From NCBI GenBank assembly GCA_963749605.1, contig CAVVNN010000003.1, forward strand, positions 85,579 to 149,578: a stretch of 64,000 bases of DNA, written 5' to 3'. The position numbers and the translations under genes were made by a program. This DNA is from an uncultured Solirubrobacterales bacterium (lineage in GTDB: Bacteria > Actinomycetota > Thermoleophilia > Solirubrobacterales > 70-9). The notes beneath the pieces were generated by a model that saw only the letters and a list, made by a program, of their open reading frames with translations, had not been told where the DNA came from and did no database searches. How positions within the stretch are numbered: position 1 is the stretch's first letter; each line of letters begins with the position of its first letter. Shown here piece by piece: positions 27,876-47,161 of this stretch.

Positions 27876-27949
<74 letters not shown>

Positions 27950-31099: not shown

Positions 31100-31250
31100 G
31101 GGTCACAAGTTTGGGCCTGCAGATTTGGCTTTCTAGAGCCGCAAGCGGTTGCGCCCTGAACAGGACTCGAACGGTGCGACCTACTCCTTTTAGGAGGGAG
31201 TCGGTCATCCTCGTGCCTTGGGATGCCTTGCAGGCGAGTGCAACAATTCT

Positions 31251-32501
31251 TCAAGGTCCGAGCGCTCCGATCGGGACAACTTGGACCCCATCTTCGCGCC
31301 TGTAGCCGTAGCCGCCAGCGGTCAGCACAGCCAATACTGCCGGCTCGCCTGAGCGGCTGGTGTCGACCTGCCCCGCGAACTTTTGGAGGGCAGTGGCCGC
31401 TTCCTCGATGGCGGTCTCCCCACCCAGCTTGACCTCAAAGGCCCCCCACCTCCCGTCTTGGCAGTTAATGATCGCGTCGACCTCGAGATCGTTTGAGTCG
31501 CGGTAGTGCTCGACTTTGGCTTCCAGCGGCTGGGCATAGATCCGTAGGTCACGGACGACCATCGACTCGAAGAAGAGTCCAAAGGTGTTGAGGTCGTCCA
31601 TTAGCGCCTGCGGATTTCCTCGCAGCGCCGCCACTGCCAAGGAGGGATCGACGAAGTGGCGCTTTGGCGCTTTACGAAGCGAGTAGCGTGAGCGCAGGTG
31701 TGGGCGCCAGGAAGGCTGGTCCTCGATGATGAATAGTCGGCTGAGGGCTTCCAGGTACTCACTTACCGTCGCCGAAGTGACCGGGTCGCCGGACTCACTC
31801 GCGTCGCTGGCCAGCGTAGTTGCTGCAACGTTGGTCGCGAGGTTTCGAGCAAGGCTCTGCAGCAGGCGCATCACCTTCTCCGGCCGATGTCTCGGCCCGA
31901 TGCTTTTGAGATCGGCGCGGACCACCTCGTCTAGGTAATCCCGAACGCCGCGAAGCGCCGGATCCATCTCGAGATGGCGGAAACCAGGCCAGCCACCGCG
32001 ACATAGCGCCTCGGCGACCTGTTGCAGCTCAAGCCTCGGATCGGCTGCCTCAGCCTTCTCGCCGCCGAGCAGCTCGGCGAGGGAGACCTCGCCGTTGCTG
32101 GTGCCGAGCTCATAGAGCGACATCGGCCGCATCCGCAGTCGGCTAATTCGCCCTGCTCCGGTGTGACGGGTCTCGTCATCGGTGGGCTGGGCGGAGCCGG
32201 CGAGGATGAACTGACCGGGGTCGTTGCGGTTATCGACCTCCCGGCGAACATGGTTCCAGATGCTCGGCGCTACCTGCCACTCATCGATCAACCTCGGTGT
32301 TTTGCCCTCAAGGATCAGACCGGGATTGATCTCGGCGGCTTTCCTAGCCTCCTCATTCACATCGAGCAGTACCTCGCTCTTAGCCAGCTGCCTCGCAGTC
32401 TCCGTCTTGCCGCAAGCTTTAGGGCCCTCAACCAAGACCGCTCCAGTCGACTCAAGTCGTTCCTGTAGCTCGATATCTGCAGTTCTAGGCAAGTAAGGCA
32501 T
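31251..32501 (-). CDS. AAA ATPase with a DUF4143-type C-terminal domain
   Basis: 416 aa. Walker A GPKACGKT, Walker B LIDEWQ, C-terminal restriction-endonuclease-like region (DLEVDAIINCQDGRWGAFEVKLG). Confidence 0.75.
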   Translation of the reverse strand: MPYLPRTADIELQERLESTGAVLVEGPKACGKTETARQLAKSEVLLDVNEEARKAAEINPGLILEGKTPRLIDEWQVAPSIWNHVRREVDNRNDPGQFILAGSAQPTDDETRHTGAGRISRLRMRPMSLYELGTSNGEVSLAELLGGEKAEAADPRLELQQVAEALCRGGWPGFRHLEMDPALRGVRDYLDEVVRADLKSIGPRHRPEKVMRLLQSLARNLATNVAATTLASDASESGDPVTSATVSEYLEALSRLFIIEDQPSWRPHLRSRYSLRKAPKRHFVDPSLAVAALRGNPQALMDDLNTFGLFFESMVVRDLRIYAQPLEAKVEHYRDSNDLEVDAIINCQDGRWGAFEVKLGGETAIEEAATALQKFAGQVDTSRSGEPAVLAVLTAGGYGYRREDGVQVVPIGALGP

Positions 32502-32520
32502 TTTGGCTCTAAAAAAGGAC

Positions 32521-32618
32521 TTCTACAAGTTATCCCATGAATTGTAGAATAAATGGACGAAAGATTGTGGATCTTTTAGGGCAATGATTATAGGGCTTTT
32601 TGCCGAAAGATTGTAGAA
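32521..32618. promoter_or_regulatory. AT-rich repeat cluster upstream of the DUF4143 ATPase gene
   Basis: TTCTACAA (32521-32528) is the inverse of TTGTAGAA (32542-32549), and TTGTAGAA recurs at 32611-32618. CGAAAGATTGT(G/A)GA occurs at 32558-32571 and 32604-32617. Confidence 0.4.
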
Positions 32619-32828
32619 AGATCTTCCGGGGCCTTGATCCGGGTTGCGGCGCGGGCGAGCGCACGGCGCCGCCCTCGGGTCTTCTTGCCGATCACATCGC
32701 CGTGGGGCCTCGCATCGGGCTGAGCCGAAGACCACGGTCGACCCCTAGGTTCGGTAAGTGGCCTCGCTTCCGTGGCTCGCTGTCTCAGGCGACCGTCGAT
32801 CGCAACAAGAACCAACCCTTGTCTGGCG

Positions 32829-32846
32829 TCAATTGTTTGGGCCGAT
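32829..32846 (+). repeat. Direct repeat copy 2 (TCAATTGTTTGGGCCGAT)
   Basis: Partner of 28185-28202, in the same orientation. Confidence 0.7.
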
Positions 32847-33054
32847 TCCCGTGGGGCGCCGATGGCTAGCGCCCTTACGCCCCAGTGCGCGTCAGGCCGG
32901 GTCGCAGTTACCGCCAGGACATGGCCCTGGCCGCGAGGCCGCAGGGCCTGACGGCAAGCACCGACCTGGCCGCTGTTCACCGCGAGGCAAGGAACGTCCG
33001 ACCGGCTGTCGAACATTCGTTCGTTCGTGGTCGGACAAACTAAGGTGGAGAGCG

Positions 33055-33783
33055 ATGGCTGACCGAAGCGCGATCGAGTGGACGGAGGCGACCTGGAACC
33101 CGGTCACCGGGTGCTCGAAGGTCTCTCCCGGCTGCGCGCACTGCTACGCGGAGACCTTCGCCGAGCGCTGGCGCGGCGTGCCGGGACACCCCTACGAGCA
33201 GGGCTTCGACCTGAAGCTCTGGCCCGAGCGCCTCGACCAGCCGCTGCGCTGGCGCCGGCCGCGGACGATCTTCGTCAACTCGATGAGCGACCTCTTCCAC
33301 GAGCAGATCCCCGACGCGTTCGTCCACGACGTCTTCCGCGTCATGGGCGAAGCCGACTGGCACGTCTTCCAGGTCCTCACCAAGCGCCATGAGCGGCTCG
33401 TCGACCTTGGGCGAACCCTCGACTGGCCGCCCAACGTCTGGATGGGGGTCTCGATCGAGAACCGCCGCTTCGTCCACCGCGCCGACTTCCTGCGCCAGGT
33501 ACCGGCCGCCGTCCGCTTCATTTCGGCCGAGCCGCTGCTCGGGCCGCTCGACGGCCTCGACCTGAGCGGGATCGACTGGCTGATCGCCGGCGGGGAGTCC
33601 GGGCCCGGCCACCGCCCGGTGCGACATGAGTGGGTGCGCGAACTCCGCGACCACTGTCTCGCCGATGACGTCGCCTTCTTCTTCAAGCAGTGGGGCGGTC
33701 GCACCCCGAAGGCTGGCGGTCGCCTTCTCGACGGTTCCCACCACGATGCGATGCCATCTTCTCGAGCCCTCACGCCGGCTTAG
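33055..33783 (+). CDS. DUF5131 (phage Gp37/Gp68-like) three-Cys-motif protein
   Basis: 242 aa from ATG 33055 (AAGGTGGAG upstream). IEWTEATWNPVTGCSKVSPGCAHCYAE (C-x6-C-x2-C), VFQVLTKR, ISAEPLLGPL, WLIAGGESGP. Confidence 0.8.
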   Translation: MADRSAIEWTEATWNPVTGCSKVSPGCAHCYAETFAERWRGVPGHPYEQGFDLKLWPERLDQPLRWRRPRTIFVNSMSDLFHEQIPDAFVHDVFRVMGEADWHVFQVLTKRHERLVDLGRTLDWPPNVWMGVSIENRRFVHRADFLRQVPAAVRFISAEPLLGPLDGLDLSGIDWLIAGGESGPGHRPVRHEWVRELRDHCLADDVAFFFKQWGGRTPKAGGRLLDGSHHDAMPSSRALTPA

Positions 33784-34904
33784 CCGACGAACCGGATTCG
33801 CACACCGCTTGCAAACTGCCTTTGGCGACCGCTGCGGTCGACCTCGATCTTCCCGTCCCTCTCCGCTGGCGCAAGCGTCTTTCGTCTCAGGTGAGCAACT
33901 CGAAAGACTGTCTCCAGTACCGATTCGTCTGCTTCCTCGATCGTGAACCACTCGGTGCCGAACTTCTCACGCAGATGGCTCAGCAGCGGGCTGGTATCGA
34001 CGGCGTCGGGGTCGGGCGTAAAGAGAACCTCCTGGCCTTGGGCGGTCCGGGTCGCGATGTAACGCGTGCCCTTGACGAAATCGACCGACCACATCGCATC
34101 CTTCATCAGTTCCAGGCCTCGATCGTGCTGGGAGGCGAATACCAACCTGTAGTCGTTGCCGTCAGCCGTTCGCAGCTCGAAGGAGCGAACATGCTCGACC
34201 TTTCCCTGCCCGTGGAGCCGTTCTTCGAACAGCTCCAGCAGGAACTCCCGGCGCGCGGACCCCTGCAGCTCCTTCGCATCTTCCCAGCGCCTGCATCCGA
34301 ACAGCGAGTTCATCGCATTCTCCTGGCCGTCTCGTCCGACGAACCGAGCGACATGAGTGAGCGGCAGGAAGATCAACACCTCGCAGCGCGAGAACTCGAG
34401 GAAGCGGCCCGCAAGCGACATCGAGCTTGCCTTGTAGCCGAACGGGTCAATGAAGGCGAAGGTTGGGATGAGCGTGCGTCCCTCCTTGCCGTGGGTCTCC
34501 TCGACGATCTCGCCGAACGTGTCCTCGAACTCCCCGGCCACCAGCTCGTACTTCACGTTGGCCGGTAGGTCGAGGCTCTCGAGCTCCGTCTCCAGATGTG
34601 CGACGCGACGAGCATCGTGCTCGATGAAGAGATAGTTGAACTCGACGCCACTCATCCGCTCGAACGCGTCGTGGTCGAGCAAGGTCTTGAGCATGATCAG
34701 GGGCGAGCCTTCCTCGCCGGTCTCATAGCGGCCAGGACCCGCGAATCCATCGACCAGCAGAAGCCTCGGCGGATCGTTGGTAAGGCGGATCACCTTCTCG
34801 GCCTGCTGGCCCATGACCGGAAGCCATGCATTGAGATACGCGCGCAGCACGCGGTGCTTCGCGCGAGTGTGGTCGTCCAGGGGCCAAAGTACGGGCTCGG
34901 CCAT
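33780..34904 (-). CDS. tcmP: Three-Cys-motif partner protein TcmP-like
   Basis: 374 aa. N-terminus WPLDDHTRAKHRVLRAYLNAWLPVM, LVDGFAGPGRY, FAFIDPFGY. Convergent with DUF5131, and the stop codons overlap by 4 nt. Confidence 0.65.
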   Translation of the reverse strand: MAEPVLWPLDDHTRAKHRVLRAYLNAWLPVMGQQAEKVIRLTNDPPRLLLVDGFAGPGRYETGEEGSPLIMLKTLLDHDAFERMSGVEFNYLFIEHDARRVAHLETELESLDLPANVKYELVAGEFEDTFGEIVEETHGKEGRTLIPTFAFIDPFGYKASSMSLAGRFLEFSRCEVLIFLPLTHVARFVGRDGQENAMNSLFGCRRWEDAKELQGSARREFLLELFEERLHGQGKVEHVRSFELRTADGNDYRLVFASQHDRGLELMKDAMWSVDFVKGTRYIATRTAQGQEVLFTPDPDAVDTSPLLSHLREKFGTEWFTIEEADESVLETVFRVAHLRRKTLAPAERDGKIEVDRSGRQRQFASGVRIRFVG

Positions 34905-34969
34905 AGCGGTAGCAGGCTAATGCTCTAGCGGTCGAACTTCTCGGCGACTGTGATCGTTGGTGTCGTCTT

Positions 34970-35427
34970 CTACCTCGCCTGGGACGCCGCTCCACGGCGA
35001 GCGCGAGGAGCGCGATCTCGCATCGCGTCCTTGACTCGCCCACTGATCCCGTGGCCACGTTTGCCGTCCAGCCATTCTCGTGCCTCGAGCTCTGTGTCGT
35101 CTTCGATAACCGCCTTCGCTGAGACCATGAGCTCCAACAACGTTCGGGAGTAAGGCTCCGCCTCTAACGCGTAGCCGCTCGCGACTACTGCTGATGCAGC
35201 CCGGATCGAGCGGAAGGCTCGAATCGTCGCAATCAGAACGGCTTGCTTTCGTATCCCCAAGCGCTGGCCGCCGCAGCCGTTCCGCTAGTCCGATCGATCG
35301 CGGCAGCAAGGACGGCGCTTACCGCGTCGAGCAGGGTGAACGACTCGAGCACCTGAATCTCTTCGTGCACCTCCTGCTCATGCTCCCTTGGCGTCCCCCA
35401 CATCTCCACGACGGCGTGGCAAGCCAT
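34970..35427 (-). CDS. Hypothetical helical protein, read as two overlapping ORFs (possible frameshift near 35245-35262)
   Basis: ORF 35233-35427 (64 aa) and ORF 34970-35260 (96 aa) are in different frames. Joined, they give a continuous about 150-aa helical sequence. I recognise no family. Confidence 0.3.
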
Positions 35428-35456
35428 CTCTTTCTCCTGGCAAGTAGGTTCTCGAC

Positions 35457-36053
35457 ATGACCGCTGTCGTTTGGACGGATACCCTGCTGGCCGTTAGTAC
35501 GGCCGCCGGGACTCTCGGAATTCTCGGAGCGCTGATTTTCGCGGCGCTGCAGACTCGGGCGCTACGCAAACAACTCTCCCTCGCCAACGTTCAGAACGAG
35601 CGAGCCACGTCGCTTGAGCAAGCCTCCCTGGATATCCAGCTCATGGAACGGATCATGGACGTGGACCATGTCTTTATCGACCGCCCGGAGTTGCGGAAGT
35701 ACTTCTTCGAAGGGGCACCGACACCACTGACGGACCCTGAGCGAGCGAGAGTCTTAGCTGTTGCCGATCTGATCATGGACGTAGCTGATGCAGCAGCAAG
35801 CGCGCGACGACACGGCCACATGCTGGATGAGGACTATCAGGCCTGGAAACATGCACTCCACAACTACTTCCACAATAGCCCTGCCATGCGTGAGCTTTGG
35901 CCAGAGACTGGTCAGTTCTATGGACCAGGCACTTCGGAGCCCTTGATCGATGTCAACGATACCCAAACGTCGTCGGCTGTCTTCGCGGACGTTATTTCCG
36001 GTACCGATGCGAGTGCAAGCGAGAGCAAAGAGGGCCGAGAGAAAACCGTTTGA
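35457..36053 (+). CDS. Hypothetical protein with one N-terminal TM helix
   Basis: 198-aa ORF, ATG start, TM segment LLAVSTAAGTLGILGALIFAAL. First gene of a co-directional five-gene block. Confidence 0.5.
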   Translation: MTAVVWTDTLLAVSTAAGTLGILGALIFAALQTRALRKQLSLANVQNERATSLEQASLDIQLMERIMDVDHVFIDRPELRKYFFEGAPTPLTDPERARVLAVADLIMDVADAAASARRHGHMLDEDYQAWKHALHNYFHNSPAMRELWPETGQFYGPGTSEPLIDVNDTQTSSAVFADVISGTDASASESKEGREKTV

Positions 36054-36143
36054 AGAGCCGACTTGCGACTAGGCGAGTCGACGCAACCGGAGCTGCACGC
36101 TCCGACGTCAGCGTGGCGCCAAAGCCGCTAGATTTCGTTGTCA

Positions 36144-36926
36144 ATGGCGGGGGGTAAGAAGGAACTTCGTGAGGGCTTCGCGGGATACGACGTCGTCAAG
36201 GCGGCTCCAAGCTACTCAAATGTGGTGGGTCTTCTATCTGGCTTCGCCCTAACGGCAGTCGTACTTGCTATCACCGTGGCTGGTACGGCCCACCTACATG
36301 ACCAGCAGCAGTTTGATGTCGGCTTTGCGACCACGATGTTCGCGGTCGCCTTTCTTGGATGTTTAGCTTGCGCCTTTTCGATGGCTTCAATCGCGGGCGA
36401 GAAGAATTCTCCGGCTACACTGACCTGCTCGATGTTGGTGGGATCAGGTATCGCGGTCTGTTTCATCACTGTTCTAGTCGGGTTTGCCGCCCTCGCTCAT
36501 GCGTTTCTGCCCGACTCGGCACCTGCGTTTCTTGCCGTTTGCTTCGTGGGGGTCGTTATTGCTCCACCGTTCGTGTGGTTCCCCCAATGGGACATCGTCC
36601 GGAACTTTGGCGAAGCTCCTTATCCTGGGCCTCCCAGGTCAACGGAGGAGGCAAAGCGGCTTGTAGTTGGCCTCTTCATGTTGGGAGTCTTTACAGCACT
36701 AGTTGGTTTGGGGATTCGACTAACGGGGGTAATCGGAACAGCTCACCACTGGGAGGTTCTGGCCCTTGCGCTGGTGACGCTGATCTATACGGCGGCAATG
36801 GTCCTCGCCGCCCTCTTAGTGTCAACCTGGATGAACCGTCCACGCTTAGGCGTCAGGATGACTTGGGCATTGGGGCTGATTCAGTCGGCAACGGTGCTTG
36901 CGCTGATATGTCTGGTTCCTGCCTGA
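36144..36926 (+). CDS. Hypothetical polytopic membrane protein (about 7 TM)
   Basis: ORF with seven hydrophobic segments. ATG 36144 is preferred over TTG 36138. Confidence 0.5.
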   Translation: MAGGKKELREGFAGYDVVKAAPSYSNVVGLLSGFALTAVVLAITVAGTAHLHDQQQFDVGFATTMFAVAFLGCLACAFSMASIAGEKNSPATLTCSMLVGSGIAVCFITVLVGFAALAHAFLPDSAPAFLAVCFVGVVIAPPFVWFPQWDIVRNFGEAPYPGPPRSTEEAKRLVVGLFMLGVFTALVGLGIRLTGVIGTAHHWEVLALALVTLIYTAAMVLAALLVSTWMNRPRLGVRMTWALGLIQSATVLALICLVPA

Positions 36927-36999
36927 ACGCCTTGGAATCAGGATGGTGGACTCCAGACAGACTGCCGGGTACCCGCCACCCAAGAGATAGGCTGAGTGA

Positions 37000-37977
37000 A
37001 TGAAGGGCGGCAAGCTCCCAACACAAGCTCAGCAGAAGGAAATAGGAGTTCACTTCGATGAACTGGCAGCCTTACTGAGTCTCGACCAGATCCGGGGCTT
37101 TGGACCCGGCGCATTTCGCGCCACCTACGAGGGGAAAGTCAGCGCCGAGGCATTGCTGGCAGACGCAAGCCTCCTGCCTCTTGAAGGCAAGCGCGGGGAG
37201 ACACTTCGCAAAGGCATAGCGGCGCTCACGTCGACCGAGCGAGAGCTTGCGAACAATCGCGCAGAACGCCAGTTGCAGCGCGCCGCAGAGCTAGGGGTAC
37301 GCATCCTCACCTATCGGCACCCTGCCTACCCACCCAACCTGCTCGCCTCCAACAATGCAGTCCCGATCTTGTACGCAAGCGGCGACGTAAGCGTCCTGAA
37401 GAAGGTCGACGTCGTCGCTTGCGTCGGTTCTCGAAAGATTCGCCCTCAATACATCAAGCGCCTAGAGACGTTTAGTGAATTGGCCTCAAAGGCCGGTTGG
37501 CTAGTTGCCTCTGGCTTTGCCAATGGCGCTGATACGGCTGCCCATCAAGCAGCGATCGCGGCCGGCGGCGCCACGGTGCTTGTGATGCCGAGTGGCGTCG
37601 ACATCCCTTTTCCACCCGAGAATCGAGACCTATGGAAGAAATGGCATGGCGAGCCTCAGGTGGCGATGATTAGCGAGTTTCCGCTTGGCACGAAGGCCTC
37701 CTCGCTGACACTGCGGAAGCGCAACAAGACGATTGTCGGCGTCTCAAGGGCGGTCCTGGTTGCCCAGAGCTCCGTCAAGGGCGGGACGATGAATGCCTAC
37801 CGCTTTGCGCTCGAACAACGCAAGCCAATCCTTACCTTCGCCCCGGATCACCAATCCGACACCGGCGGCAACCGACTCATTCAAGAAGAGACGGACAGAC
37901 AGGAAGACCTTCTCAGTGAACACGCCCCTTCCCTACCTGAGCTTGAGCGTTGGCTCGCGCAATCCTCTTCGACCTAG
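37000..37977 (+). CDS. DprA/Smf-like (SLOG-superfamily Rossmann) protein
   Basis: DprA core: VACVGSRK, ASGFANGADTAAHQAAIAAGGATVLVMPSGVD, EFPLGT, RNKTIVG, GGTMNAY. Confidence 0.75.
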   Translation: MKGGKLPTQAQQKEIGVHFDELAALLSLDQIRGFGPGAFRATYEGKVSAEALLADASLLPLEGKRGETLRKGIAALTSTERELANNRAERQLQRAAELGVRILTYRHPAYPPNLLASNNAVPILYASGDVSVLKKVDVVACVGSRKIRPQYIKRLETFSELASKAGWLVASGFANGADTAAHQAAIAAGGATVLVMPSGVDIPFPPENRDLWKKWHGEPQVAMISEFPLGTKASSLTLRKRNKTIVGVSRAVLVAQSSVKGGTMNAYRFALEQRKPILTFAPDHQSDTGGNRLIQEETDRQEDLLSEHAPSLPELERWLAQSSST

Positions 37978-38534
37978 ACGGCACCGTTTGGGACAGCAGG
38001 CACTGGTATGCCGAGCTGCTCTGTGATCGCGGCGCTGGGCCGGTCGACGAGCAGTTGAAACGCATTGAAGGCGGCCAGCCAGCCGCAAGTTTGCTTCGCA
38101 AAGCAGGACTCTCCACAGCGCAGTTCAACAGTGCCTGCGCCCTCAGCGTCCCGCCGCTATATGAAGGAATGGCCGGTGCGATGCGCCGCTTAGCTGATGC
38201 GGGCACTCGGCTCGGTGCCGTGACCAACCTGCCCAAATGGCTGTATGCGCCGATGCTCTCTTCCTACGGCGAGGCTTTGCCGTTCGAGGCAGTCGTCGGC
38301 TGGAGCGACACGCGGCGAAAGCCGAACCCCGACCCGCTAGAACTCGCTATGAAGCGCCTTGAGATTGAGCCGGGGCCTATGCATTGGTATGTCGGAGACA
38401 CCAGCTCGGACGCCCAGGCTACAAGCGCCGCTGGAATGAGTTTCGCCTGGGCCACCTGGGGATACGACCTGACCTGTCCAGAAGGGGTGGAGTGCCGCCT
38501 GAAAAGTCCGGGACAGCTCGTAGAGCTCTTATGA
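37950..38534 (+). CDS. HAD-superfamily phosphatase
   Basis: Motif I ILFDLDGTVWDS, motif II VTNLP, C-terminal GDTSSD. The TTG start overlaps the DprA-like 3' end by 28 nt. Confidence 0.75.
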   Translation: MARAILFDLDGTVWDSRHWYAELLCDRGAGPVDEQLKRIEGGQPAASLLRKAGLSTAQFNSACALSVPPLYEGMAGAMRRLADAGTRLGAVTNLPKWLYAPMLSSYGEALPFEAVVGWSDTRRKPNPDPLELAMKRLEIEPGPMHWYVGDTSSDAQATSAAGMSFAWATWGYDLTCPEGVECRLKSPGQLVELL

Positions 38535-39601
38535 AATTCGCCTACAAGATCAATTCGTCCTTCGACGGTTTCACACCCGCAGTGCTCCCTGAACGCATGT
38601 ATCGAAAACGGTTGACGCTGGGCTGGAAGCGCTACATCGAGACCGTAGAGATGGACGCCGAAGTGTGGATCCACTTTCGCGGTCCAGATCGTTGGGTGGA
38701 CGGCGTCTATGCAGAGGGCACGGTCAGGCGGATCGACCTCGATACCCGGGAGGTGGTGGTCCGCGTTGACCGCTACTCGACCGAGGAGCCGCTCACGGAC
38801 CAGAAGACGTCTGAGGCGATTGCCCGGGTCGTCTCTACGCCGTATCGCCAGGTCTTCTATCTGCCTGATGACCTGCTGCGAGTCTTCGATTGCGACATCA
38901 ACGGCGATGCAAGAAGTTGCGCCAAGCGTCGCTGCAGTCAATGCGTGGCCTGGCCTCGGCTGCCGCGGGTGAGGGACGCGGAACTAACTCTGCCATCGCG
39001 TTTACAGGGGTCAAAAATCAGTGGCTATGCGCCTGCCTACTGGGTAATCGCCAGCCGCTCCTGGCCTGTCAGCGGCGGCCGGGCTGCTCGAGCTGGCATC
39101 AATGACACCACCTACGTCTTCAAGCGGTTCAAGACGGGAACCGAGAAGCTCGCATATCCGCTTGCCCGCGGCATTGCGGCTGCGTTGCAAGAACGCGATT
39201 TGGAAACAGCCGATTTCATCGTTCCGATCCCGCTATCTCCCGACAAGGCAAAAGCCGGCGAGTTCCACCGAACGCTGGCGCTCGCCAAGGAGCTTTCGCA
39301 GCTCCTAGGCATCGACGTGCGCCAAGCGCTGCATCTCGATCGGCCGATTTCCAAGCGAGCACTCGACCTGAGGGCAGATCAATTCGAGCGGCGATATGCG
39401 GAGGCACTGAGCTGCAGGGGAATGCGGCCTCGGCCAACTCGCGTGTTGCTGCTTGACGACGTTTGTACTCACGGGAGCACACTCGCGGTAGCAACCAAAG
39501 CGATACAGGAGCGAGTCCACGATTGCGAGGTGGTCGCCTGCACCGCCGGGCAGATGACCGTCGTTGAGGCACTCGCTGACGGCGAACAACTCCTGAAGTA
39601 A
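38531..39601 (+). CDS. ComF-like phosphoribosyltransferase with an extra about 170-aa N-terminal region
   Basis: ATG 38531 overlaps the HAD stop (ATGA). Cys pair CAKRRCSQC. PRPP-binding loop VLLLDDVCTHGSTL near the C-terminus. Confidence 0.7.
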   Translation: MKFAYKINSSFDGFTPAVLPERMYRKRLTLGWKRYIETVEMDAEVWIHFRGPDRWVDGVYAEGTVRRIDLDTREVVVRVDRYSTEEPLTDQKTSEAIARVVSTPYRQVFYLPDDLLRVFDCDINGDARSCAKRRCSQCVAWPRLPRVRDAELTLPSRLQGSKISGYAPAYWVIASRSWPVSGGRAARAGINDTTYVFKRFKTGTEKLAYPLARGIAAALQERDLETADFIVPIPLSPDKAKAGEFHRTLALAKELSQLLGIDVRQALHLDRPISKRALDLRADQFERRYAEALSCRGMRPRPTRVLLLDDVCTHGSTLAVATKAIQERVHDCEVVACTAGQMTVVEALADGEQLLK

Positions 39602-39669
39602 TCGCGATAGAGCAACAACCCGGTGAATCCACATACAAACCGGGGCCCTGCAGGACCAGGGGCTTCCTG

Positions 39670-42600
39670 CTACGAAACGTGTAACTCCAGAGGCGTAAGC
39701 TCAGGCAGTGGATCCTGATCTACGCTGCCTGTTGCGGCGCGATAGTTCGCATCAAGCGCCGGGGCCATCAACACCAGCTCCGTCAGTCGTCGGGCAATAC
39801 TTCGAAACTGTCTTGCCTCGACGAATGTCAAAGGTCGGCCAAGAATGACGTTCTCTCGATACGACAGCCACTTTCGAAGTACCTGAAAACCGCCAACCTT
39901 GAAACTCCAGACAGTCTCGGGAACACCTCGCCAGTACGTCTTGTCATTGAGGTAGACGTCGAGCACGGTATCTCCAAGCAGCTCAAGTTGGCTAGCGCTG
40001 AGGGTCGCGTGTTCCTCTGACGTTCGGGGCCGCCTCACAATCATCCCCGCGCCGGGCATCACGATGCGACTGATAGCTCCACTTTTATTCTGCTTTCGGA
40101 TTTGTGCATGCCCCCAGCCGACGGTTAGATCAAGATCGGCAGCACGCAGCGAACCTCCCCCCTTGTGCTCAATGGAAGCAATCGATTGCAACCGAACGGA
40201 GGCCGAGGTATCCAGACCTGGCAGGGGCGTGTCGATGTCGAGCAGCCCAGCAATCCTCACACCAAGGTTTGCTGAATCCTCTAGGTGATCGCGGGTGATC
40301 GGCAGCGGAACGCGCGGCCAATCATTCCGGATTGCGTCCCCGTTCTCTTCTAGGTAAAGCGGGGAGTATCCGATGGCCAAGGCGTGAAGCCAGATCAGCC
40401 GAGCAGATCCTCGCGACGTATCCGCATCGTCATAGCCGAGCTCTGCCAAATAGTTGTGTGCGAGCTGAGACAAGTTAGGACGCCATGGCAGTCCTGATTG
40501 CGCCGTCTCTTCCACTGGGAATAGACGATCCGCTGCATCATCGTCCTTAGGTTCCTCTGCGAGCAGCAGCGGCACTGCATAGGCATCTTTGTGAAGCACG
40601 TGCTGGTCGACTAAATGTTGCGACAACATGAACGCTGCCCCATCAAGGGCTCGAGGAGAGCGTTTACGAAAAAGCAAAAAGTCGCTCCCCACCTTTGCCG
40701 CCTCGAGGAACTGTGGACGCGGCCGGTTCCACAGCTTTGGCGTGGGGTCTATGTATGCCCATCGAACGTCGAACGGTTTGGTTTGAAATAGCTTCAGGCG
40801 CTCGGTATCAAATGCGCTGTCCTTAAGCATTCGTTTCCTGGTCGCAGCAGCATCGTACCCCGACCACGGTTCGAGGAGGCCATCAGCGATCTCCGGGTCA
40901 ATCTGCTCAACGTTGCGCTTATCGTCAAGGAAATGCCGCATGCGGCGCTCAAGTACGTCTCTGTCGAGATCAATGAGAGCCTCACCACGGTTCTCGTTGA
41001 GTCCAAGATCGGCTCGCGCAGCGGCTAGCTCTATCAACTTGGGCCAGGCTTCGTAGCCAAGCCGCGGATTCCATCGCCGCAGTCGGTACCAATTCTTCTC
41101 GTTTGGCGATAGCTGCTCGTAGGGAGGGCCTTCTTGGTTCTTGTCAAGCGACGCTCCGAGGTCAGCCAGCTTCGTTGAGCCCCAGAAGTCACGGTACATC
41201 GCCTGAAACTCACTTACCTTGTGATCCTCAGTCCGCACAAGCAGTGTGATCGCAGTGCCCACTTGAATGCCACTTGGACTGGCCTCGCTCGAAAAGACGC
41301 TCGGGTCTGGTTTGCCATCGGGGGTTTTCTTTCCCGTCTCCCGGCTGTCTCCATTCAGATTGTCAACATAGGCGTGATCGAACGCTCGCATTAGGTGCTG
41401 GCGCATTAGGACCGTTGATGGGTCGCCTAGCCATCCGAAGTTCGAGATGAAGCAGATGATGCCCCGTCCCGTCTGCTCCGCGATTCGTCGCTCCGCCACC
41501 CGGAAGAAGCGCACGTAATAATCATCGAGCTTGTTCTTCGTCACTTCCCAAGGCGGTTCGGACAGTCCCGCCTTGTAGGGGGCGATGAGATCGTCATCGC
41601 TCTGCTCACGGATCCCAGCGAAGCCGTTGTAAGGCGGGTTACCCAGAACCACCAGAATCGGCTCGGATCGCTTGACGTTGCCGGCGGCCTCCCGCTCGGA
41701 TTGGAACTCGACTATGTCGAGAAAGCTCTCCTCCGCATCGCGCCAACCGGTAAGCGCGTTGGTCAGATAGACCGAGGGGCGCTCTTCGGCGCGTGAGTCC
41801 AGCGGTGCCCTCAGCTCGTCCAGAAAAAGCCCGAGCTGGAGATGGGTGATGATGAACGGAGCAGGGAGGACCTCAAATCCGTGGAAGCGCTTCAGCGCAG
41901 CTTCCTTGACCTCTTGTCCGGCGAGACCGTCCCCGTACTCGTCTTCGAGAACCTCCACCGTCTTCTTCAGAGCCTCGATCAAAAAGGAGCCAGTTCCGGT
42001 GCAGGGGTCAAGGACGTGGACCCGCTCATCCGCGAGGCCGAGCGGAATGTCCATATCTCGCTGTAGCGACTCATGAACTCGGGCGACCATGTAGCGGACG
42101 ACCTCGGGGGGCGTGAACCAGACGCCGAGTTCTCGTCGCAGGCGAGGGTCATAGGCCTGAAGAAACGGCTCATAGAAGTAGCGAACCGCCTCCCGCCGCT
42201 CGAATTTCTCGAAGAATGTCCGTCGGTCGACGCGGGCGAAGACATCCTCAGTCCAGTCAAGTATCTGGTCGAGGCCAGCAGGCAGATTCCGCGGAGTCAC
42301 CAGAAGGTCGAAAAGCACCCGAACCATCGGCACATTCAGAGTCCAATTTGCCTTCTGCCAAGAGAACCTGGCGCTGCTCTCTGGAGACTGTTCGGCACTC
42401 CAGTTGACCCAGGAGGCAAAGACTCCATAAAAGAGCGTTTGAACCAGTGCGGATCTGAAGAACTCCTCGCCGGCATCGGCCTCAAAGCGCAGGCCCAAGG
42501 CATCCTCGAAGGCCGACTTGAGAGCTGCCAATCCTTTTAGCTCACCGGCTTCTTCGATTCTGGTACGTGCAATCTGTGCGTATGCGGCGAGAAAACTGGC

Positions 42601-43233
42601 GAGATCCTCGGGCGAAGACAGCGGGGCGTCAGCGAGGAGTACCCGGCGCAGAAACTGCTCCAACTCCTCCCCCTTGGAATCGTCGGCACCGGACTCTGCG
42701 AGGCTCCAGAAGGTCGACTCAGAGTTGGTGATCGCGAAGCCCTCACCCTCAATCACCTCGCCCTGCTCATTAAGCCGAAGATGCCTGAATTCGCGATAGT
42801 TGGTGATCAGGACCTGTCCGTAGTGGTCCAGGTATTTCGCGACCTGCTTGCTCCGCGCAAGGCGATTCAAATTGGTGCTTGCCGGTTTTATCTCCATGAC
42901 TCCCCGCTCGGGGGAGCGGACCTCGATCGAGATCCTGTTGGAGTCGGAGAGCTTGAGGCTGCGTTTTAGGAAGAGGGCCCCGTCTGGAATTCCCGAGCCG
43001 CGATTCTTTGGCGTCAAGACGCAGTGAACAGACGGGGAAACGTTTCCGCCCACCGCGTTAATAAGCTCGGCGAGCACCGGGTAGTAGGACGTCTCATCAC
43101 TTGCCTCGCCGGAGGCTCGAATGCGCGTCATCTCGCTCAGGTACTCCGCGAGGACACCCATGACTCGTGTCGTTCGACTGGCGGGCTCTAATTCATTCCA
43201 AGGGCGGTTTCCTGGGAACCAAGTTGCAGTCAT
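39670..43233 (-). CDS. Single-chain restriction-modification enzyme (Type IIG/IIL-like N6-adenine methyltransferase)
   Basis: 1187 aa. N-terminal PD-(D/E)xK-like pair (GIPDGALF ... VMEIKP), SAM motif VLDPCTGTGSFL, catalytic GNPPYNGF, C-terminal type-ISP-like WSFKVGGFQVLRKWLSYRE. Confidence 0.75.
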   Translation of the reverse strand: MTATWFPGNRPWNELEPASRTTRVMGVLAEYLSEMTRIRASGEASDETSYYPVLAELINAVGGNVSPSVHCVLTPKNRGSGIPDGALFLKRSLKLSDSNRISIEVRSPERGVMEIKPASTNLNRLARSKQVAKYLDHYGQVLITNYREFRHLRLNEQGEVIEGEGFAITNSESTFWSLAESGADDSKGEELEQFLRRVLLADAPLSSPEDLASFLAAYAQIARTRIEEAGELKGLAALKSAFEDALGLRFEADAGEEFFRSALVQTLFYGVFASWVNWSAEQSPESSARFSWQKANWTLNVPMVRVLFDLLVTPRNLPAGLDQILDWTEDVFARVDRRTFFEKFERREAVRYFYEPFLQAYDPRLRRELGVWFTPPEVVRYMVARVHESLQRDMDIPLGLADERVHVLDPCTGTGSFLIEALKKTVEVLEDEYGDGLAGQEVKEAALKRFHGFEVLPAPFIITHLQLGLFLDELRAPLDSRAEERPSVYLTNALTGWRDAEESFLDIVEFQSEREAAGNVKRSEPILVVLGNPPYNGFAGIREQSDDDLIAPYKAGLSEPPWEVTKNKLDDYYVRFFRVAERRIAEQTGRGIICFISNFGWLGDPSTVLMRQHLMRAFDHAYVDNLNGDSRETGKKTPDGKPDPSVFSSEASPSGIQVGTAITLLVRTEDHKVSEFQAMYRDFWGSTKLADLGASLDKNQEGPPYEQLSPNEKNWYRLRRWNPRLGYEAWPKLIELAAARADLGLNENRGEALIDLDRDVLERRMRHFLDDKRNVEQIDPEIADGLLEPWSGYDAAATRKRMLKDSAFDTERLKLFQTKPFDVRWAYIDPTPKLWNRPRPQFLEAAKVGSDFLLFRKRSPRALDGAAFMLSQHLVDQHVLHKDAYAVPLLLAEEPKDDDAADRLFPVEETAQSGLPWRPNLSQLAHNYLAELGYDDADTSRGSARLIWLHALAIGYSPLYLEENGDAIRNDWPRVPLPITRDHLEDSANLGVRIAGLLDIDTPLPGLDTSASVRLQSIASIEHKGGGSLRAADLDLTVGWGHAQIRKQNKSGAISRIVMPGAGMIVRRPRTSEEHATLSASQLELLGDTVLDVYLNDKTYWRGVPETVWSFKVGGFQVLRKWLSYRENVILGRPLTFVEARQFRSIARRLTELVLMAPALDANYRAATGSVDQDPLPELTPLELHVS

Positions 43234-43298
43234 ACACGAGAGAGGTCATGCCCGGGCTCGCTGCAGCAGGGGAAGAATGAGTGCGCCCACAGACCCAG

Positions 43299-43895
43299 CT
43301 AAGTGAGGACTTCGTCGCCACAGACACGGCCCTGAATGTGAGCAGCCTTAAGTGATCGCTTGATCTGCGCCTCAAGCGGATCGCGGTTCCTTGACGCGAT
43401 CGGCAGTCGGACCTGCATGCTGGTGTCTCCCCACGGTGCATCGTCGGGTGACACGGGCCGATGAACCCAGCTTGCCGGCGATAATTGAGATGCCCTTAGA
43501 GTGTGGACTGCCCGTTCAACATCGGCGTTGTTGATGAGCAAAGGAAGCTCTGTGTTGTCCCCCGGCCCCGCTGAGTGCTCCCAGGCCCAAAGGCGGCGAG
43601 GGACGAGCAGCTGAATTCCACGTCGGTGACGCCAGGCTGTTCCAAGTCGGTCCGAAGCGATTGCCATGCTCACGCCGAGCACCACGGTCGCGGGACGGGA
43701 GAGATCGACGATGTAGGCGCTGGCGACAGCTCCGGCGACGGCCGGGATAACGACAAGGATCCGCAACAGGAAATCGACCATGGGTCGCCACAAGCAACGC
43801 CAGCGCTCGTACTCCCGCAAGAGCCGAAACCGATCGAGGTAGTCGGCGTCTTGCGGGTACCACGGCCATCCACTTTGGTCGACACCTCCGATCAT
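43299..43895 (-). CDS. Hypothetical membrane protein
   Basis: 198 aa from ATG 43893-43895, one TM (LLRILVVIPAVAGAVASAYIV). The upstream part of the track ORF overlaps the next gene and is discarded. Confidence 0.4.
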   Translation of the reverse strand: MIGGVDQSGWPWYPQDADYLDRFRLLREYERWRCLWRPMVDFLLRILVVIPAVAGAVASAYIVDLSRPATVVLGVSMAIASDRLGTAWRHRRGIQLLVPRRLWAWEHSAGPGDNTELPLLINNADVERAVHTLRASQLSPASWVHRPVSPDDAPWGDTSMQVRLPIASRNRDPLEAQIKRSLKAAHIQGRVCGDEVLT

Positions 43896-43935
43896 CGATC
43901 GGAGAGTAGCTCTGACCGCGTGACGCCTGCTGGTC

Positions 43936-45606
43936 CTAGCCGCTGCCGGCGCCGGGTATGACTTTGCCGAGTAGGGCGTTGACGCCGCTGCCGGTGAGCC
44001 CCCAGAGGAAAAGAGTGCTGTAGTTGAGCACCGGATCGGAGCCGAACGTGCTGTTGTCGAGGTAGAGCTCTTTGAGACCGGCGAGGATGAAGGCAACGAC
44101 CAAGATTGTTCGCAGCACCCAGGGAAGCGCGTAGATACTGAGCCAGACGATAACGCGACCGGTGCGGTGCCAGACCCGCTTGGCCCATGCTCTTAGCTTC
44201 GTCCAAGCCAAACTGAGTTGTCGGCCGCGTCGTGCGGACTCCCCTTCGGTTTTTTGGCGCCCCGACCGCGGCTGCCTGCCGTAGAAGATCTCCGCTCCCG
44301 GCGTCGCTCGCACCTTGGGAGATTTTCCGACGAAAGCCCATAGATCCGTTTGGGCCGCCTTGGCTGCCGTCGTGTCGCCCCGCTCGATCGCCTTCCGCAA
44401 GGCGCCCAGCGGCTCGGAGATCCCATCCGGGAGCGGCTTCCCAGGATGCGCCTTCTCGACTTCGATCAGCAGTGTCCGCACTTCGCCCAGCCACTCGATG
44501 TATTGGCCGATCGCAGCGCGGGCCTCTTTTGCCGCATCCAGCCTGCCGTGCAGAGCCAAGTCGCGGGCGGCATCGAGCCTGCCCTCCAGCAGAACTCGGT
44601 CATCCAGCGCCAACGATCGCGTTTTCTTGCGCAGGGAGCGCAGTTCACGCAACTCTTCTGCCCTCGCTTTGGTGCGCCCAGCGAACCAGATGAGGAACTG
44701 GACAAGCAGTGCTATAAGGATGGCGATGATCGCGTAGAGAGGGCCCACCTTCACGTCTAGTTCGAGCGGCAGTGCCACCCGCTTGTCGGCACCAAGCACC
44801 GTGAGGTAGATGGCTCCCATGTAATGGCCGGGATCGAGGTCGCTGCGTTTGACCTCGATTGGCTTCAGCACCGAAGTGCTCTGGGGGAGTAGTTCGAACT
44901 GTTGAGCGGAGGACCTCAGGGCGTCGGGGGCGATCACTTCTCCGCCCGGATTACGGGTCAGAGCGATCTGCACTCCAGTCACCTGAGCGGGGCTTTGCGA
45001 CGCGTTGTCGACCTGCGGGGCGAACTCATCGCGGCGAGCGGCAGCGCGGGTAAGAAATTCAAGGATTCCCCCAGGCCCACACGACAGAGTCCGGCAATTG
45101 ACCATCTGCAAGTGAAGGGTCTTGTCGGCGCCGCCAACGAAGCTCACGTCGGCCGCACCCGAGGCGACCACGGTCAGCGCAATCCGACACGCGCCACGAT
45201 CCGCGCGAATCACGCCTTTGTATTCACCGGCGAAGCGAACGTCTTTGGCAGTGATCTTGACGTCTCGTGACTCGCCCTTTTCCAGCGGGGCATCAAGATT
45301 GGTAATTTCTATTTCACTGGTGCTAATCCGGTGCGGTATCGAGTCAGTGGACACCAGCGCACTTGCAAGGAAAAAGGGCTGCGCTCCTTTCCGCAGCCCA
45401 GTAAGGCGCAACGATCCGGTGAACGTTTCCGCGACGCCGAGGACACCGTTCATGCGTAATGAATGAGGTGCGACTCGGGCGCCACCGCAATTCTGGAGGC
45501 TCTCGGCGGGAGTGGAGGTGGCCGTGGCGTAGGTCGGAGCAAGTAGCAATGTCGCGCCGGCGAGCGCCACGATCCCCGTGACTCCACGTACGTTGAAGCG
45601 CTCCAC
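43936..45606 (-). CDS. Hypothetical secreted/membrane protein (signal peptide, mid and C-terminal TM helices)
   Basis: 556 aa, GTG start. Signal-like VTGIVALAGATLLLAPTYATA, TM PLYAIIAILIALLVQFLIWF, C-terminal TMs. No recognisable catalytic motif. Confidence 0.5.
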   Translation of the reverse strand: MERFNVRGVTGIVALAGATLLLAPTYATATSTPAESLQNCGGARVAPHSLRMNGVLGVAETFTGSLRLTGLRKGAQPFFLASALVSTDSIPHRISTSEIEITNLDAPLEKGESRDVKITAKDVRFAGEYKGVIRADRGACRIALTVVASGAADVSFVGGADKTLHLQMVNCRTLSCGPGGILEFLTRAAARRDEFAPQVDNASQSPAQVTGVQIALTRNPGGEVIAPDALRSSAQQFELLPQSTSVLKPIEVKRSDLDPGHYMGAIYLTVLGADKRVALPLELDVKVGPLYAIIAILIALLVQFLIWFAGRTKARAEELRELRSLRKKTRSLALDDRVLLEGRLDAARDLALHGRLDAAKEARAAIGQYIEWLGEVRTLLIEVEKAHPGKPLPDGISEPLGALRKAIERGDTTAAKAAQTDLWAFVGKSPKVRATPGAEIFYGRQPRSGRQKTEGESARRGRQLSLAWTKLRAWAKRVWHRTGRVIVWLSIYALPWVLRTILVVAFILAGLKELYLDNSTFGSDPVLNYSTLFLWGLTGSGVNALLGKVIPGAGSG

Positions 45607-45686
45607 AGCGCGACACTCTCACACTGCACAGGACATTTCAAGTGTTTAACGAAGCGCGCGGGCGATGAGAGCTTGCGGCACCGCAG

Positions 45687-45970
45687 TCAAAGCATCCCGT
45701 ATCGCGCACTGCTCTTCGCGGTCACACGGATGCCCTCCTTCGACCGCTTGATCTCGCCCTTTGCCTCTAACCGCCGAGCCAAAGACCCCGCCTGGTTCGC
45801 CGACACTCCATGGCCTTCGCGATCCCCGCGACCGACGCCCCCGGGTTCGCCTCGACCGCCGCCAGGAACTGCTTGCGCGCCGATCCTCTGCTGCGGGCAA
45901 TCGACGTCAACCGTCGTTCGCGCGTCGTCAAGCGACGCTTCCTCCTGGCCCCTACCACGATCTCCAGCAC
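45687..45970 (-). pseudogene. Small winged-helix regulator, apparently frameshifted
   Basis: The ORF 45767-45970 frame reads ...QFLAAVEANPGASVAGIAKAM. The ORF 45687-46145 frame continues GVSANQAGSLARRLEAKGEIKRSKEGIRV. The junction is at about 45806-45812. Divergent from the sulfotransferase gene. Confidence 0.5.
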
Positions 45971-46036
45971 CGTCCGTGTCCTGCGCCAAGCTTCCGGCCC
46001 TTGTCTTCGGCCGACGGGCGGGGCAGGGTATAGCGG

Positions 46037-47161
46037 ATGGACGAACGACGGCTGACTTGGATCTTTGGCTCATCGCGAAGCGGCAGCACCTGGCTGTTGC
46101 GAATGCTCGCCGACTTCGAGCGGGTGGTGCCGATCGACGATCCACACCTCGGTCATCACCTTGGCGTCTGGCGGCCGATTCCGCTTGCCTGGGCGACGGT
46201 TGACGGCGACCCCCCGGAGCTGACTACGTTGCTCGAGCTGAAGGCCGACGAGCCGGGCTACTTCTTCTCCGAGCGTCACCGAGAGAGCTGGTGGCAACCG
46301 CTGCGAGATCTGATCGCTTCGCGGTTTGAAGCGCAGGCTGAGGAACACGCTCTCGATCCGGCTGAAGCGAACTACGTGGTCAAGGAGCCGGGTTCCCACG
46401 TAGCGCCTCTACTCGCGGACCTCTTCCCGGATTCCAAGCTGGTCTTCCTGCTTCGCGATGGTCGCGATGTCGTTGACTCCTGGCTCGCTGGCTACCGCCA
46501 CGGTGGTTGGGCGATACCGGGAGGCGCCTTTCCGGTTGCCCGCGATAGTCGGATCGCTTTGATCACATGGCTCTCGGCGGTGTGGGTCTATCGCAGCCGT
46601 GCAGTCCGCACCGCGTTCGAAACGCGTTTCCCCGACAGCCGGGTGTTGGTTCGCTACGAGGCGTTGCGCGAGCGCACCGTGGAGGCACTGGCAGAAGTCT
46701 GCGAGCCACTGGGGTTCGATCACATGCGCGCCGAGGAGATTGCCGAACGGCACAGCTTCGAGCGGCTTCCCCCGCATGTGCGAGGCCCGCACATGCGTGA
46801 GCGCACCGCCCGTCCGGGTTCTTGGCGGAGGAACCTCACCGCCGCCGAGCAGACTGCGATGCACGAGGCTCTTGGCGACGCACTGGTCGAATTCGGCTAT
46901 GACACGGCAGACACACGCGAGGCCAGGGTCTCGGATGTATCGGGAAAATCGAATTCAGGGTTGCGAGGGGTATGGACTAGTGTTGCTGCTGTGTTCGCGG
47001 GTTCATCGACTCCGACTCCTTCCGATCCCAGCTCCGCTGTGACGAGAATCAGCGGGGGGGGGGGGGGGGGTTATCGCTTCGATGGCGCCCACCTAGGGTC
47101 TTGCGCGGGGCATTGTCCATCGGAATCCGCTCAACGCCGAGCTAAGCGGAAACCGAAGTGA
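46037..47161 (+). CDS. Sulfotransferase family protein (C-terminal tail after about 46920 doubtful)
   Basis: PAPS 5'-phosphosulfate loop GSSRSGSTWL and 3'-phosphate motif FLLRDGRDVVDS. The last about 80 codons are lower-GC and cross a G17 tract. Confidence 0.75.
   Translation: MDERRLTWIFGSSRSGSTWLLRMLADFERVVPIDDPHLGHHLGVWRPIPLAWATVDGDPPELTTLLELKADEPGYFFSERHRESWWQPLRDLIASRFEAQAEEHALDPAEANYVVKEPGSHVAPLLADLFPDSKLVFLLRDGRDVVDSWLAGYRHGGWAIPGGAFPVARDSRIALITWLSAVWVYRSRAVRTAFETRFPDSRVLVRYEALRERTVEALAEVCEPLGFDHMRAEEIAERHSFERLPPHVRGPHMRERTARPGSWRRNLTAAEQTAMHEALGDALVEFGYDTADTREARVSDVSGKSNSGLRGVWTSVAAVFAGSSTPTPSDPSSAVTRISGGGGGGYRFDGAHLGSCAGHCPSESAQRRAKRKPK
47054..47070. repeat. Homopolymeric G17 tract
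   Basis: Counted directly in the sequence. It lies inside the 3' tail of the sulfotransferase ORF, 88 nt before the next gene start. Confidence 0.95.

Follow-up and report, generated by a model that had tools for sequence, protein, structure and literature searches.

A conserved DprA-like/HAD/phosphoribosyltransferase gene trio, probably of the ShosTA kind, in a Solirubrobacterales defence island

A 64,000-nucleotide (nt) stretch of DNA from an uncultured Solirubrobacterales bacterium (contig CAVVNN010000003.1; the window) contains a block of five genes, g1 to g5, that encode two membrane proteins, a DprA-like protein, a HAD-superfamily phosphohydrolase and a ComF-like phosphoribosyltransferase (PRTase; the g5 product is also called PRT1). 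A DprA-PRTase gene pair is known to protect against T7 and lambda (PMC9122126), and the first-pass annotation of the window read the block as a possible undescribed expansion of such a pair. The question raised by this locus is which of the five genes belong together and what they do. We find that the conserved unit consists of g3, g4 and g5 (37000-39601), and that these genes probably form a translationally coupled toxin-antitoxin or abortive-infection module of the ShosTA kind, located in a defence island adjacent to a tRNA-Asp gene.

The unit conserved across loci

The anatomy of the block agrees with its earlier description (Table 1). The list of open reading frames (ORFs) and the sequence confirmed five plus-strand genes with gaps of 84 nt between g1 and g2 and 73 nt between g2 and g3, the last three genes being coupled by a 28-nt overlap and then an ATGA. 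With the ATG at 36144 as its start, the choice of public gene callers, g2 encodes 260 amino acids (aa), and the first of these gaps widens to 90 nt. Family searches and hydropathy bore out the domain identities (DprA-like, HAD and PRTase; one and seven transmembrane segments), and g1 and g2 gave no family match in Pfam, PADLOC or NCBIfam. All five genes have homologues in public data and are thus real. The TTG start of g4 lies eight codons ahead of the HAD nucleophile, just before motif I (FDLDGT).

To survey related loci, one genome per species was scanned, which yielded 42 loci, and these were searched by tblastn with the five window proteins; after removal of duplicates, 38 non-redundant loci remained. 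Homologues of g3, g4 and g5 were adjacent, co-oriented and in the same order in 38 of 38 loci, and every locus with a full-length g5 homologue carries adjacent g3 and g4 homologues in that fixed order. Likewise, the gene tables around five g5 homologues contain a DprA-like, a HAD and a PRTase gene in each case and the membrane genes in none. The trio occurs in Actinomycetota, Alpha-, Gamma- and Deltaproteobacteria, Acidobacteriota, Gemmatimonadota and Latescibacterota, as well as in two archaea, one a member of the Methanomassiliicoccales and the other of the Bathyarchaeota. The overlaps between the genes are also kept: the 4-nt overlap of the HAD stop and the PRTase start (NTGA) is present in 31 of 33 intact loci. 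All 33 also keep an overlap between the DprA-like and HAD genes, which measures 73 nt in one locus and 19-31 nt in the other 32. These results show that the unit conserved beyond chance is g3 to g5, not the five-gene block. As the first-pass annotation had anticipated, the HAD gene co-varies with the DprA/PRTase pair, sitting between the two in all 38 loci; the same expectation for the two membrane genes failed.

A reading in which all five genes form one system, with g1 and g2 as effectors driven by the product of the PRTase, HAD and SLOG enzymes, draws on the layout of the window, where g1 to g5 are co-directional, separated by short gaps, and have no convincing terminator in between. A promoter and terminator scan of 34800-39800 returned nothing exceeding shuffled expectation. 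The neighbourhood survey speaks against such a system. Tblastn detected no g1 or g2 homologue in the 38 related loci, and no multi-transmembrane ORF lies upstream of the DprA-like gene in the 15 loci that were inspected, namely those without a second PRTase (see below). In the closest relative, L001, nucleotide similarity to the window (71%) is restricted to 37081-39577; it starts inside g3 and stays inside the trio. Homologues of both membrane proteins are instead found elsewhere, apart from the trio and from each other. The 14 g2 homologues (53-77% identical) lie in contexts that lack both the trio and g1: in L048 (4863-6765), 46 nt downstream of a DUF4062/TIR-like gene; in L050, near an integrase and a radical-SAM gene; and in L051, next to HEPN-RES and UvrD genes and following an unrelated ORF of 167 aa, to name examples. 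About 10 g1 homologues stand alone in unrelated settings (e.g., L052 and L053), without the trio or g2, and no function was found for g1. Because g1 and g2 are absent from the related loci and have their own homologues in other contexts, the island carries three independent pieces of cargo here: g1, g2 and the trio. The five-gene reading, and with it the suggestion that the membrane proteins are effectors of this system, is rejected as very unlikely, being largely refuted by the survey.

The position of one g2 homologue directly after a DUF4062/TIR-like gene in another island points to a possible effector-type protein somewhere, and the g2 family may serve as the membrane effector of some other, undescribed defence module. 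We also considered g1 as a conserved partner of g2 and rejected it, the ORFs upstream of g2 homologues (the 167-aa ORF in L051 and the DUF4062/TIR-like gene in L048) being dissimilar to g1.

What stands of the proposed expanded variant is therefore a three-gene unit that includes the HAD gene, not a five-gene version with membrane genes. A ShosTA-like three-gene version with a separate HAD looks undescribed. In the literature searched, ShosTA is a two-gene system, and no separate HAD gene, EVE-like PRTase domain or paired TPR-PRTase is mentioned, though an earlier description outside that literature is possible.

The three proteins and their relation to ShosTA

The g3 product belongs to the DprA family in the broad sense. 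It matches Pfam DNA_processg_A at 4e-46 and, more weakly, SLOG LDcluster4 at 2.7e-6. The PADLOC ShosA model PDLC03961 recognises it at 8.4e-47 over profile positions 14-262 of 303, and PDLC02997 does so at 9.2e-12. Its sequence matches in the PDB are DprA proteins plus ShosA (9vzo and 8zva; 4.8e-10 for 9vzo), and it shares 30% identity with the ShosA-like protein that phage SopEPhi encodes. Both single-stranded DNA (ssDNA) and RecA are bound by ShosA (PMC11961720, PMC12961424), and the solved members of the DprA clade, ShosA among them, bind ssDNA (PMC12961424). Together with a match of g5 to the PADLOC ShosT model PDLC03962 (4.2e-7), the ShosA score upholds the earlier recognition of the pair as a DprA-PRTase system, that is, of the ShosTA kind.

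For the HAD gene, the link to ShosTA is more specific. Escherichia coli ShosT (424 aa) has two domains, a HAD-type pyrophosphatase, with pyrophosphatase activity, and a PRTase fused to it (PMC11961720; PMC12961424). The hydrolase domain assists the toxicity of the PRTase: mutating the hydrolase causes a slight drop in toxicity, and mutations in the loop that binds phosphoribosyl pyrophosphate (PRPP) abolish it (PMC11961720; PMC12961424). The g4 product matches Pfam HAD_2 at 4.6e-16; its NCBIfam matches, all under cut-off, are to phosphoglycolate phosphatase (2.3e-25), PpaX (2.8e-10) and the BT2127-type diphosphatase (6e-4). HAD motifs I (D8, D10, T12), III (K124) and IV (G149, D150, D154) are conserved in 36-37 of the 37 g4-family sequences; for motif II, T92 in the TN motif of g4 aligns with the TN motif of ShosT. 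When the HAD family (37 sequences) was compared with the ShosT family (five sequences, from the prototype locus of phage P2_4C9 and four plasmid homologues) using hhalign, the two aligned with a probability of 94.9% and an E-value of 4.5e-8 over 116 columns, g4 residues 67-185 falling onto ShosT residues 27-159. The comparison is convincing only with this five-member alignment and is weak against E. coli ShosT alone (probability 45%). In addition, BLASTP of g4 against ShosT gave a local match over the motif IV region (4e-4), and one ShosT homologue is named 'HAD hydrolase-like protein' by PGAP. Since the g4 family is homologous to the hydrolase domain fused in ShosT, the g4 HAD would be the split counterpart of the ShosT N-terminal domain, and the HAD-PRTase pairing appears to be ancestral to ShosTA. 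The first-pass annotation had set the HAD apart as an insertion foreign to the described system, a view that the homologous HAD-like domain fused in prototype ShosT contradicts (PMC11961720). In a metagenomic protein of 806 aa, P0213, a g4-type HAD occupies residues 1 to about 175, and g5-type sequence follows from about residue 182. The protein may be a natural HAD-PRTase fusion, but its GyrB/Toprim-like tail suggests an error in gene calling, and we give it little weight.

The g5 product is a three-part protein (Table 1). More than 120 full-length homologues are known, of 350-370 aa and 40-79% identity; plasmid and phage collections searched with g5 by tblastn gave no match. Its catalytic part scores weakly against the Pfam PRTase family (0.02) and better against NCBIfam comF (1.6e-8, residues 197-327). 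The match to ShosT model PDLC03962 is weak and covers 128 of 237 profile positions, and the prototype ShosT model PDLC03012 in PADLOC was not matched. An AlphaFold2 model of g5 (predicted local distance difference test, pLDDT, 89.5) is closest in Foldseek to Helicobacter pylori ComF (7p0h, 7.5e-5), then to ShosT (8zvc, 1.1e-3), followed by PurF and APRTs. Searches of the PDB sequences with the single sequence and with the family profile missed ShosT and returned only generic PRPP-loop matches with E above 0.01. The link between g5 and ShosT rests on the fold and on the HAD domain. The family alignment shows invariant residues in the PRTase core at D309, D310, T313, G315 and T317 and in P234-L235-S236-P237-K239.

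Ahead of this core lie two further modules. Residues 1-165 were modelled separately (pLDDT 84), and the top Foldseek matches were EVE proteins (2ar1 at 6.1e-4, 2p5d, 2g2x, 1wmm, 2eve and THYN1 3eop/5j3e); the THYN1 matches include a complex with 5-methylcytosine DNA, and the ASCH protein 3iuw and YTH domains rank next. The probabilities of these matches are 0.97-1.0, and the template-modelling (TM) scores of about 0.41-0.55 are for a PUA-like beta-barrel. Pfam, including its EVE, ASCH and YTH families, gave no family match to this region in 55 members. Residues K6, F14, P16, R22, Y35, W46, F49 and Y60 are invariant in the family alignment. A phmmer search of the N-terminal region against 1.84 billion representatives found only 95 proteins (clusters), the complete ones almost all of 350-380 aa, because of which we regard the domain as essentially confined to one architecture and the family as rare. 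The second module is the predicted zinc ribbon. The first-pass annotation had seen a Cys pair in the N-terminal region; cysteines are indeed present there, but the invariant ones number four, not two (C121, C130, C135 and C138, in 55 sequences). The EVE/ASCH-like domain and the four-Cys motif most likely bind nucleic acid and could tie the toxin to a DNA or RNA signal. Together with the ComF-like core they point to contact with nucleic acid, perhaps for sensing or, as a more speculative option, with nucleic acid as the substrate.

Proposed mechanism and competing explanations

A type IV toxin-antitoxin of the ShosTA type is the best-supported reading of the module. By analogy with the E. coli prototype (PMC11961720, PMC12961424), the g5 product would be the toxin, which binds PRPP and transfers its phosphoribosyl group to some acceptor, disturbing nucleotide metabolism and DNA replication. 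The g4 product, made in fixed proportion to it through the ATGA overlap, would strip pyrophosphate, or the phosphate of the product, and so pull the reaction on, as the hydrolase domain of ShosT does. Translated first, the g3 product would be an antitoxin that acts indirectly, by binding ssDNA and through RecA-dependent repair. Phage infection, by host shut-off or by phage ssDNA with its binding proteins, would lift this protection, and the infected cell would stop growing. The antitoxin-first gene order and the fixed coupling fit this reading.

The decay of the genes points in the same direction. Among the 38 loci, the PRT1 gene is disrupted in eight and the HAD gene in three, and the DprA-like gene is intact throughout. 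Insertion sequences (IS) account for two of the breaks, on the PRTase or HAD side: DDE_3 in L040 and DDE_Tnp_1 in L038. If the nine damaged loci are independent and the hits are spread evenly over 875 codons, the chance that none falls in the DprA-like gene is about 0.015. The pattern fits a toxin/antitoxin split in which PRT1 is harmful and the DprA-like protein protective.

Several points weigh against an assignment to the ShosTA kind. The g4 product has the full Asp nucleophile motif and a cap region, whereas the ShosT domain lacks motif I: at the position of DxDGT in g4, the five aligned ShosT homologues read SIAD, SIED, GVDG, SLRD and SLRD. The substrate of g4 need not be pyrophosphate. 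The g3 product is as near to a genuine DprA (3uqz, 2.3e-18) as to crystallised ShosA (4.8e-10). The sequence relation between g5 and ShosT is limited to the PRPP loop (33 columns in hhalign), and the two PRTases may therefore use different acceptors. Nothing in the prototype mechanism corresponds to the EVE-like and zinc modules or to the second PRTase that is often present, and some of the broken genes may be assembly errors in long-read metagenome-assembled genomes. Finally, we infer the toxicity, neutralisation, phage defence, trigger and substrates of the trio alike.

A competing explanation, close to the suggestion of the first-pass annotation that the enzymes make or sense a nucleoside-type small molecule, is a small-molecule pathway in which the PRTase makes a nucleotide-like product from PRPP and a base, the HAD dephosphorylates it to a nucleoside-type signal or toxin, and the SLOG protein binds or processes that compound, not DNA. 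A PRTase followed by a phosphatase is coherent two-step chemistry, and substrate channelling agrees with how strictly, at 1:1, the HAD is coupled to the PRTase. The HAD has the fully conserved catalytic set that phosphomonoesterases typically show and is as similar to sugar-phosphate and nucleotide phosphatases as it is to pyrophosphatases, and g3 also scores on a SLOG family model. On the other side, g3 falls in the DprA clade, whose solved members bind ssDNA (PMC12961424), the homologous ShosT domain was measured as a pyrophosphatase (PMC11961720), and no conserved receptor or effector gene stands beside the trio; we consider this pathway unlikely. The N-terminal modules of g5 suggest yet another course, in which the EVE-like domain and the zinc ribbon seat the PRTase on DNA or RNA, where a base is phosphoribosylated. 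Trimming of the 5'-phosphate would be the task of the HAD, and recognition or repair of the lesion that of the DprA-like protein, a logic like that of DarTG. The fold of the N-terminal region is that of the EVE/ASCH/YTH readers of modified DNA or RNA bases, and the antitoxin would be an ssDNA-binding, RecA-loading protein. No enzyme of the PRT family is known to modify nucleic acids; moreover, the PUA-fold match is only moderate by TM score (about 0.45-0.5), and such a domain might just as well bind a free nucleotide or serve as a regulatory sensor. Two published findings lean the other way: ssDNA binding and cooperation with DprA are documented for ComFC (PMC9005727), whose structure comes closest to the catalytic part of g5, and purine acceptors were not found for ShosT (PMC11961720). 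On balance it is doubtful that g5 acts on nucleic acid rather than on a free base, be it by base phosphoribosylation with PRPP as donor or by activation once modified or single-stranded phage nucleic acid is bound by its reader domain.

The plainest explanation, that g3 and g5 are ordinary dprA and comFC genes serving DNA uptake, is extremely improbable. The best general family matches are indeed DprA and ComF, and ComFC and DprA cooperate in transformation (PMC9005727). However, both proteins fall far under the equivalog cut-offs (g3 131.1 vs 191.15 bits for dprA, TIGR00732; g5 34.7 vs 233.55 for comF, TIGR00201, and 26 vs 304 for PRK11595). The HAD, the EVE-like domain and the second PRTase are not competence features, the IS disruptions lie on the PRTase/HAD side and spare the DprA-like gene, and the genes are distributed sporadically, archaea included. 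Their surroundings, a low-GC island among defence genes, likewise differ from the usual context of competence genes, which the first-pass annotation had named as a finding that would overturn its proposal. The setting of the trio is a defence island, not a competence locus.

Related systems, the second PRTase and the island

Among known systems, ShosTA of E. coli and P2-like phages (PDB 8zva-8zvd, 9vzo) is the nearest in layout, with a DprA-like gene followed by a PRPP-binding PRTase gene in the same order. In the phage P2_4C9 prototype, ShosT follows ShosA one nucleotide on, and the DprA-like gene comes first in the plasmid loci too. Both systems are carried in defence hotspots, both tie a HAD-fold hydrolase of the g4 kind to the PRTase, and the g5 model matches ShosT by fold. 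They differ in that the hydrolase is fused in ShosT and is a separate gene in the trio, where the DxDGT motif is intact and a cap region is present; the PRTase of the trio is ComF-like, with EVE-like and four-Cys modules, and a second TPR-PRTase is often present. The minimal DprA-PRTase pair of SopEPhi (orf14/orf15) is recognised by the same PADLOC ShosA model (4.6e-71, vs 8.4e-47 for g3), and its PRTase matches ShosT model PDLC03962, as g5 does; that PRTase, however, has only 193 aa, with no HAD or N-terminal modules, and is encoded first, in reversed order. The g5 product and SopEPhi orf14 align only at the PRPP loop. In the SopEPhi hotspot (L054, 982-4271), a PDC-M11 pair with an ASCH (PUA-like) domain protein as its B member lies ahead of the PRTase-DprA pair. 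A PUA-like domain thus adjoins a ShosT-like PRTase in this phage and is fused to the PRTase in the g5 family, which may be a coincidence.

The competence pair ComFC-DprA shares with the trio a four-Cys motif ahead of the PRT domain, the VPIPLS and DDVxTxGxT motifs and a DprA-family partner. ComFC carries its four-Cys zinc finger N-terminal to the PRT domain, binds ssDNA and interacts with DprA (PMC9005727). The Cys spacing differs, being C-x8-C-x4-C-x2-C in g5 and CxxC-x8-CxxC in H. pylori ComFC (PMC9005727), as does the length, about 190-240 aa in ComFC against 356 aa in g5 with its added EVE-like domain of 115 aa. The trio is further distinguished by the coupled HAD, the defence-island location, the sporadic distribution and the toxin-like decay. 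As for PsyrTA/RqlHI, g3 matches PsyrA at 1e-27 and the logic of a PRTase-containing toxin is shared; the toxin there is a RecQ-like helicase-PRTase, whereas neither g5 nor its neighbours contain a helicase domain, and the match of g5 to PsyrT is marginal (0.0064) and confined to the PRTase end. Four DprA-PRTase architectures can thus be distinguished: the minimal phage pair, the E. coli prototype, in which the HAD-like domain is fused, the helicase-bearing PsyrTA/RqlHI, and the present trio.

The trio bears on ShosTA itself, which has been characterised only recently and whose hydrolase looks minor in its role in E. coli. The trio would be a natural split ShosT and offers two separable proteins for biochemistry. 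In bacteria and archaea alike, a conserved start/stop overlap binds the intact, separate HAD to the PRTase, which argues that the hydrolase step is essential to the chemistry. Moreover, a ComF-type PRTase with the fold of a modified-base reader ties DprA-PRTase defence to the ComFC-DprA competence pair and raises the idea that nucleic acid is a trigger or target. Annotation tools would probably call only a two-gene ShosTA here, or nothing, and would miss the HAD gene and the second TPR-PRTase.

The second PRTase was recovered by clustering of flanking ORFs followed by a hidden Markov model (HMM) search, and is present in 25 of 41 trio loci. It is a paralogue of 300-380 aa that combines a TPR-like N-terminus with a ComF-like PRTase at the C-terminus, encoded upstream or downstream of the trio and mostly on the same strand. 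The HMM found no second TPR-PRTase in the whole 64-kb window, and the protein is an accessory component.

Genes g1 to g5 lie in a low-GC stretch of the window (about 28-47 kb, or 27876-47200 with the tRNA gene; GC 0.57-0.66 vs about 0.70 in the flanks) that starts directly after a tRNA-Asp gene and holds several matches to defence models (Table 1). When the window was searched for repeats of the 3' end of tRNA-Asp, the tRNA itself was the only match, and no integrase was found in the window either. Elsewhere, trio loci adjoin type I restriction-modification, DUF4238, SLFN/AlbA_2, Cas3-like and PIN/Fic genes.

Table 1. Coordinates of the trio, its subfeatures and its surroundings (window positions unless a locus is named)
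Feature	Position	Strand	Description
g3	37000-37977	+	DprA-like (SLOG/Rossmann) protein, ShosA-like, 325 aa; predicted antitoxin
g3/g4 overlap	37950-37977	+	28 nt, g3 stop region on g4 start; translational coupling
g4	37950-38534	+	HAD-superfamily phosphohydrolase, 194 aa, TTG start
g4/g5 ATGA	38531-38534	+	g4 stop overlapping g5 start
g5 (PRT1)	38531-39601	+	Three-part phosphoribosyltransferase, 356 aa from ATG; predicted toxin
PUA-fold domain of g5	38531-38875	+	EVE/ASCH/YTH kind, residues 1 to about 115
C-x8-C-x4-C-x2-C motif of g5	38891-38944	+	Predicted zinc ribbon, residues 121-138, position as ComFC zinc finger
ComF-like PRTase core of g5	39083-39565	+	Residues about 185-345; intact PRPP loop LLLDDVCTHGST and VPIPLSPDK motif
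g1	35457-36053	+	198 aa, single predicted N-terminal transmembrane segment (hydropathy)
g2	36138-36926	+	262 aa from TTG, seven predicted transmembrane segments (hydropathy)
tRNA-Asp	27876-27950	+	Low-GC stretch starts directly after
Ppl-like PHP-ATPase	28325-31099	-	Defence model match
PDC-S01, AAA_14/DUF4143	31251-32501	-	Defence model match
PDC-M30 pair (B and A), DUF5131	33055-33783	+	Defence model match
PDC-M30 pair (B and A), partner	33780-34904	-	Defence model match
Type IIG/ISP restriction-modification enzyme	39670-43233	-	Defence model match
Large ORF	43936-45606	-	556 aa, no Pfam or PADLOC match; inside island (region 43299-45606)
Large ORF	54511-57774	+	1087 aa, no Pfam or PADLOC match; second low-GC patch, 54-58 kb
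Second PRTase, example	L005 3175-4212		
Second PRTase, example	L003 7194-8210		
Second PRTase, example	L011 5126-6187		
IS-interrupted trio locus	L040 6641-8871		DprA-like gene intact
IS-interrupted trio locus	L038 6404-9037		DprA-like gene intact

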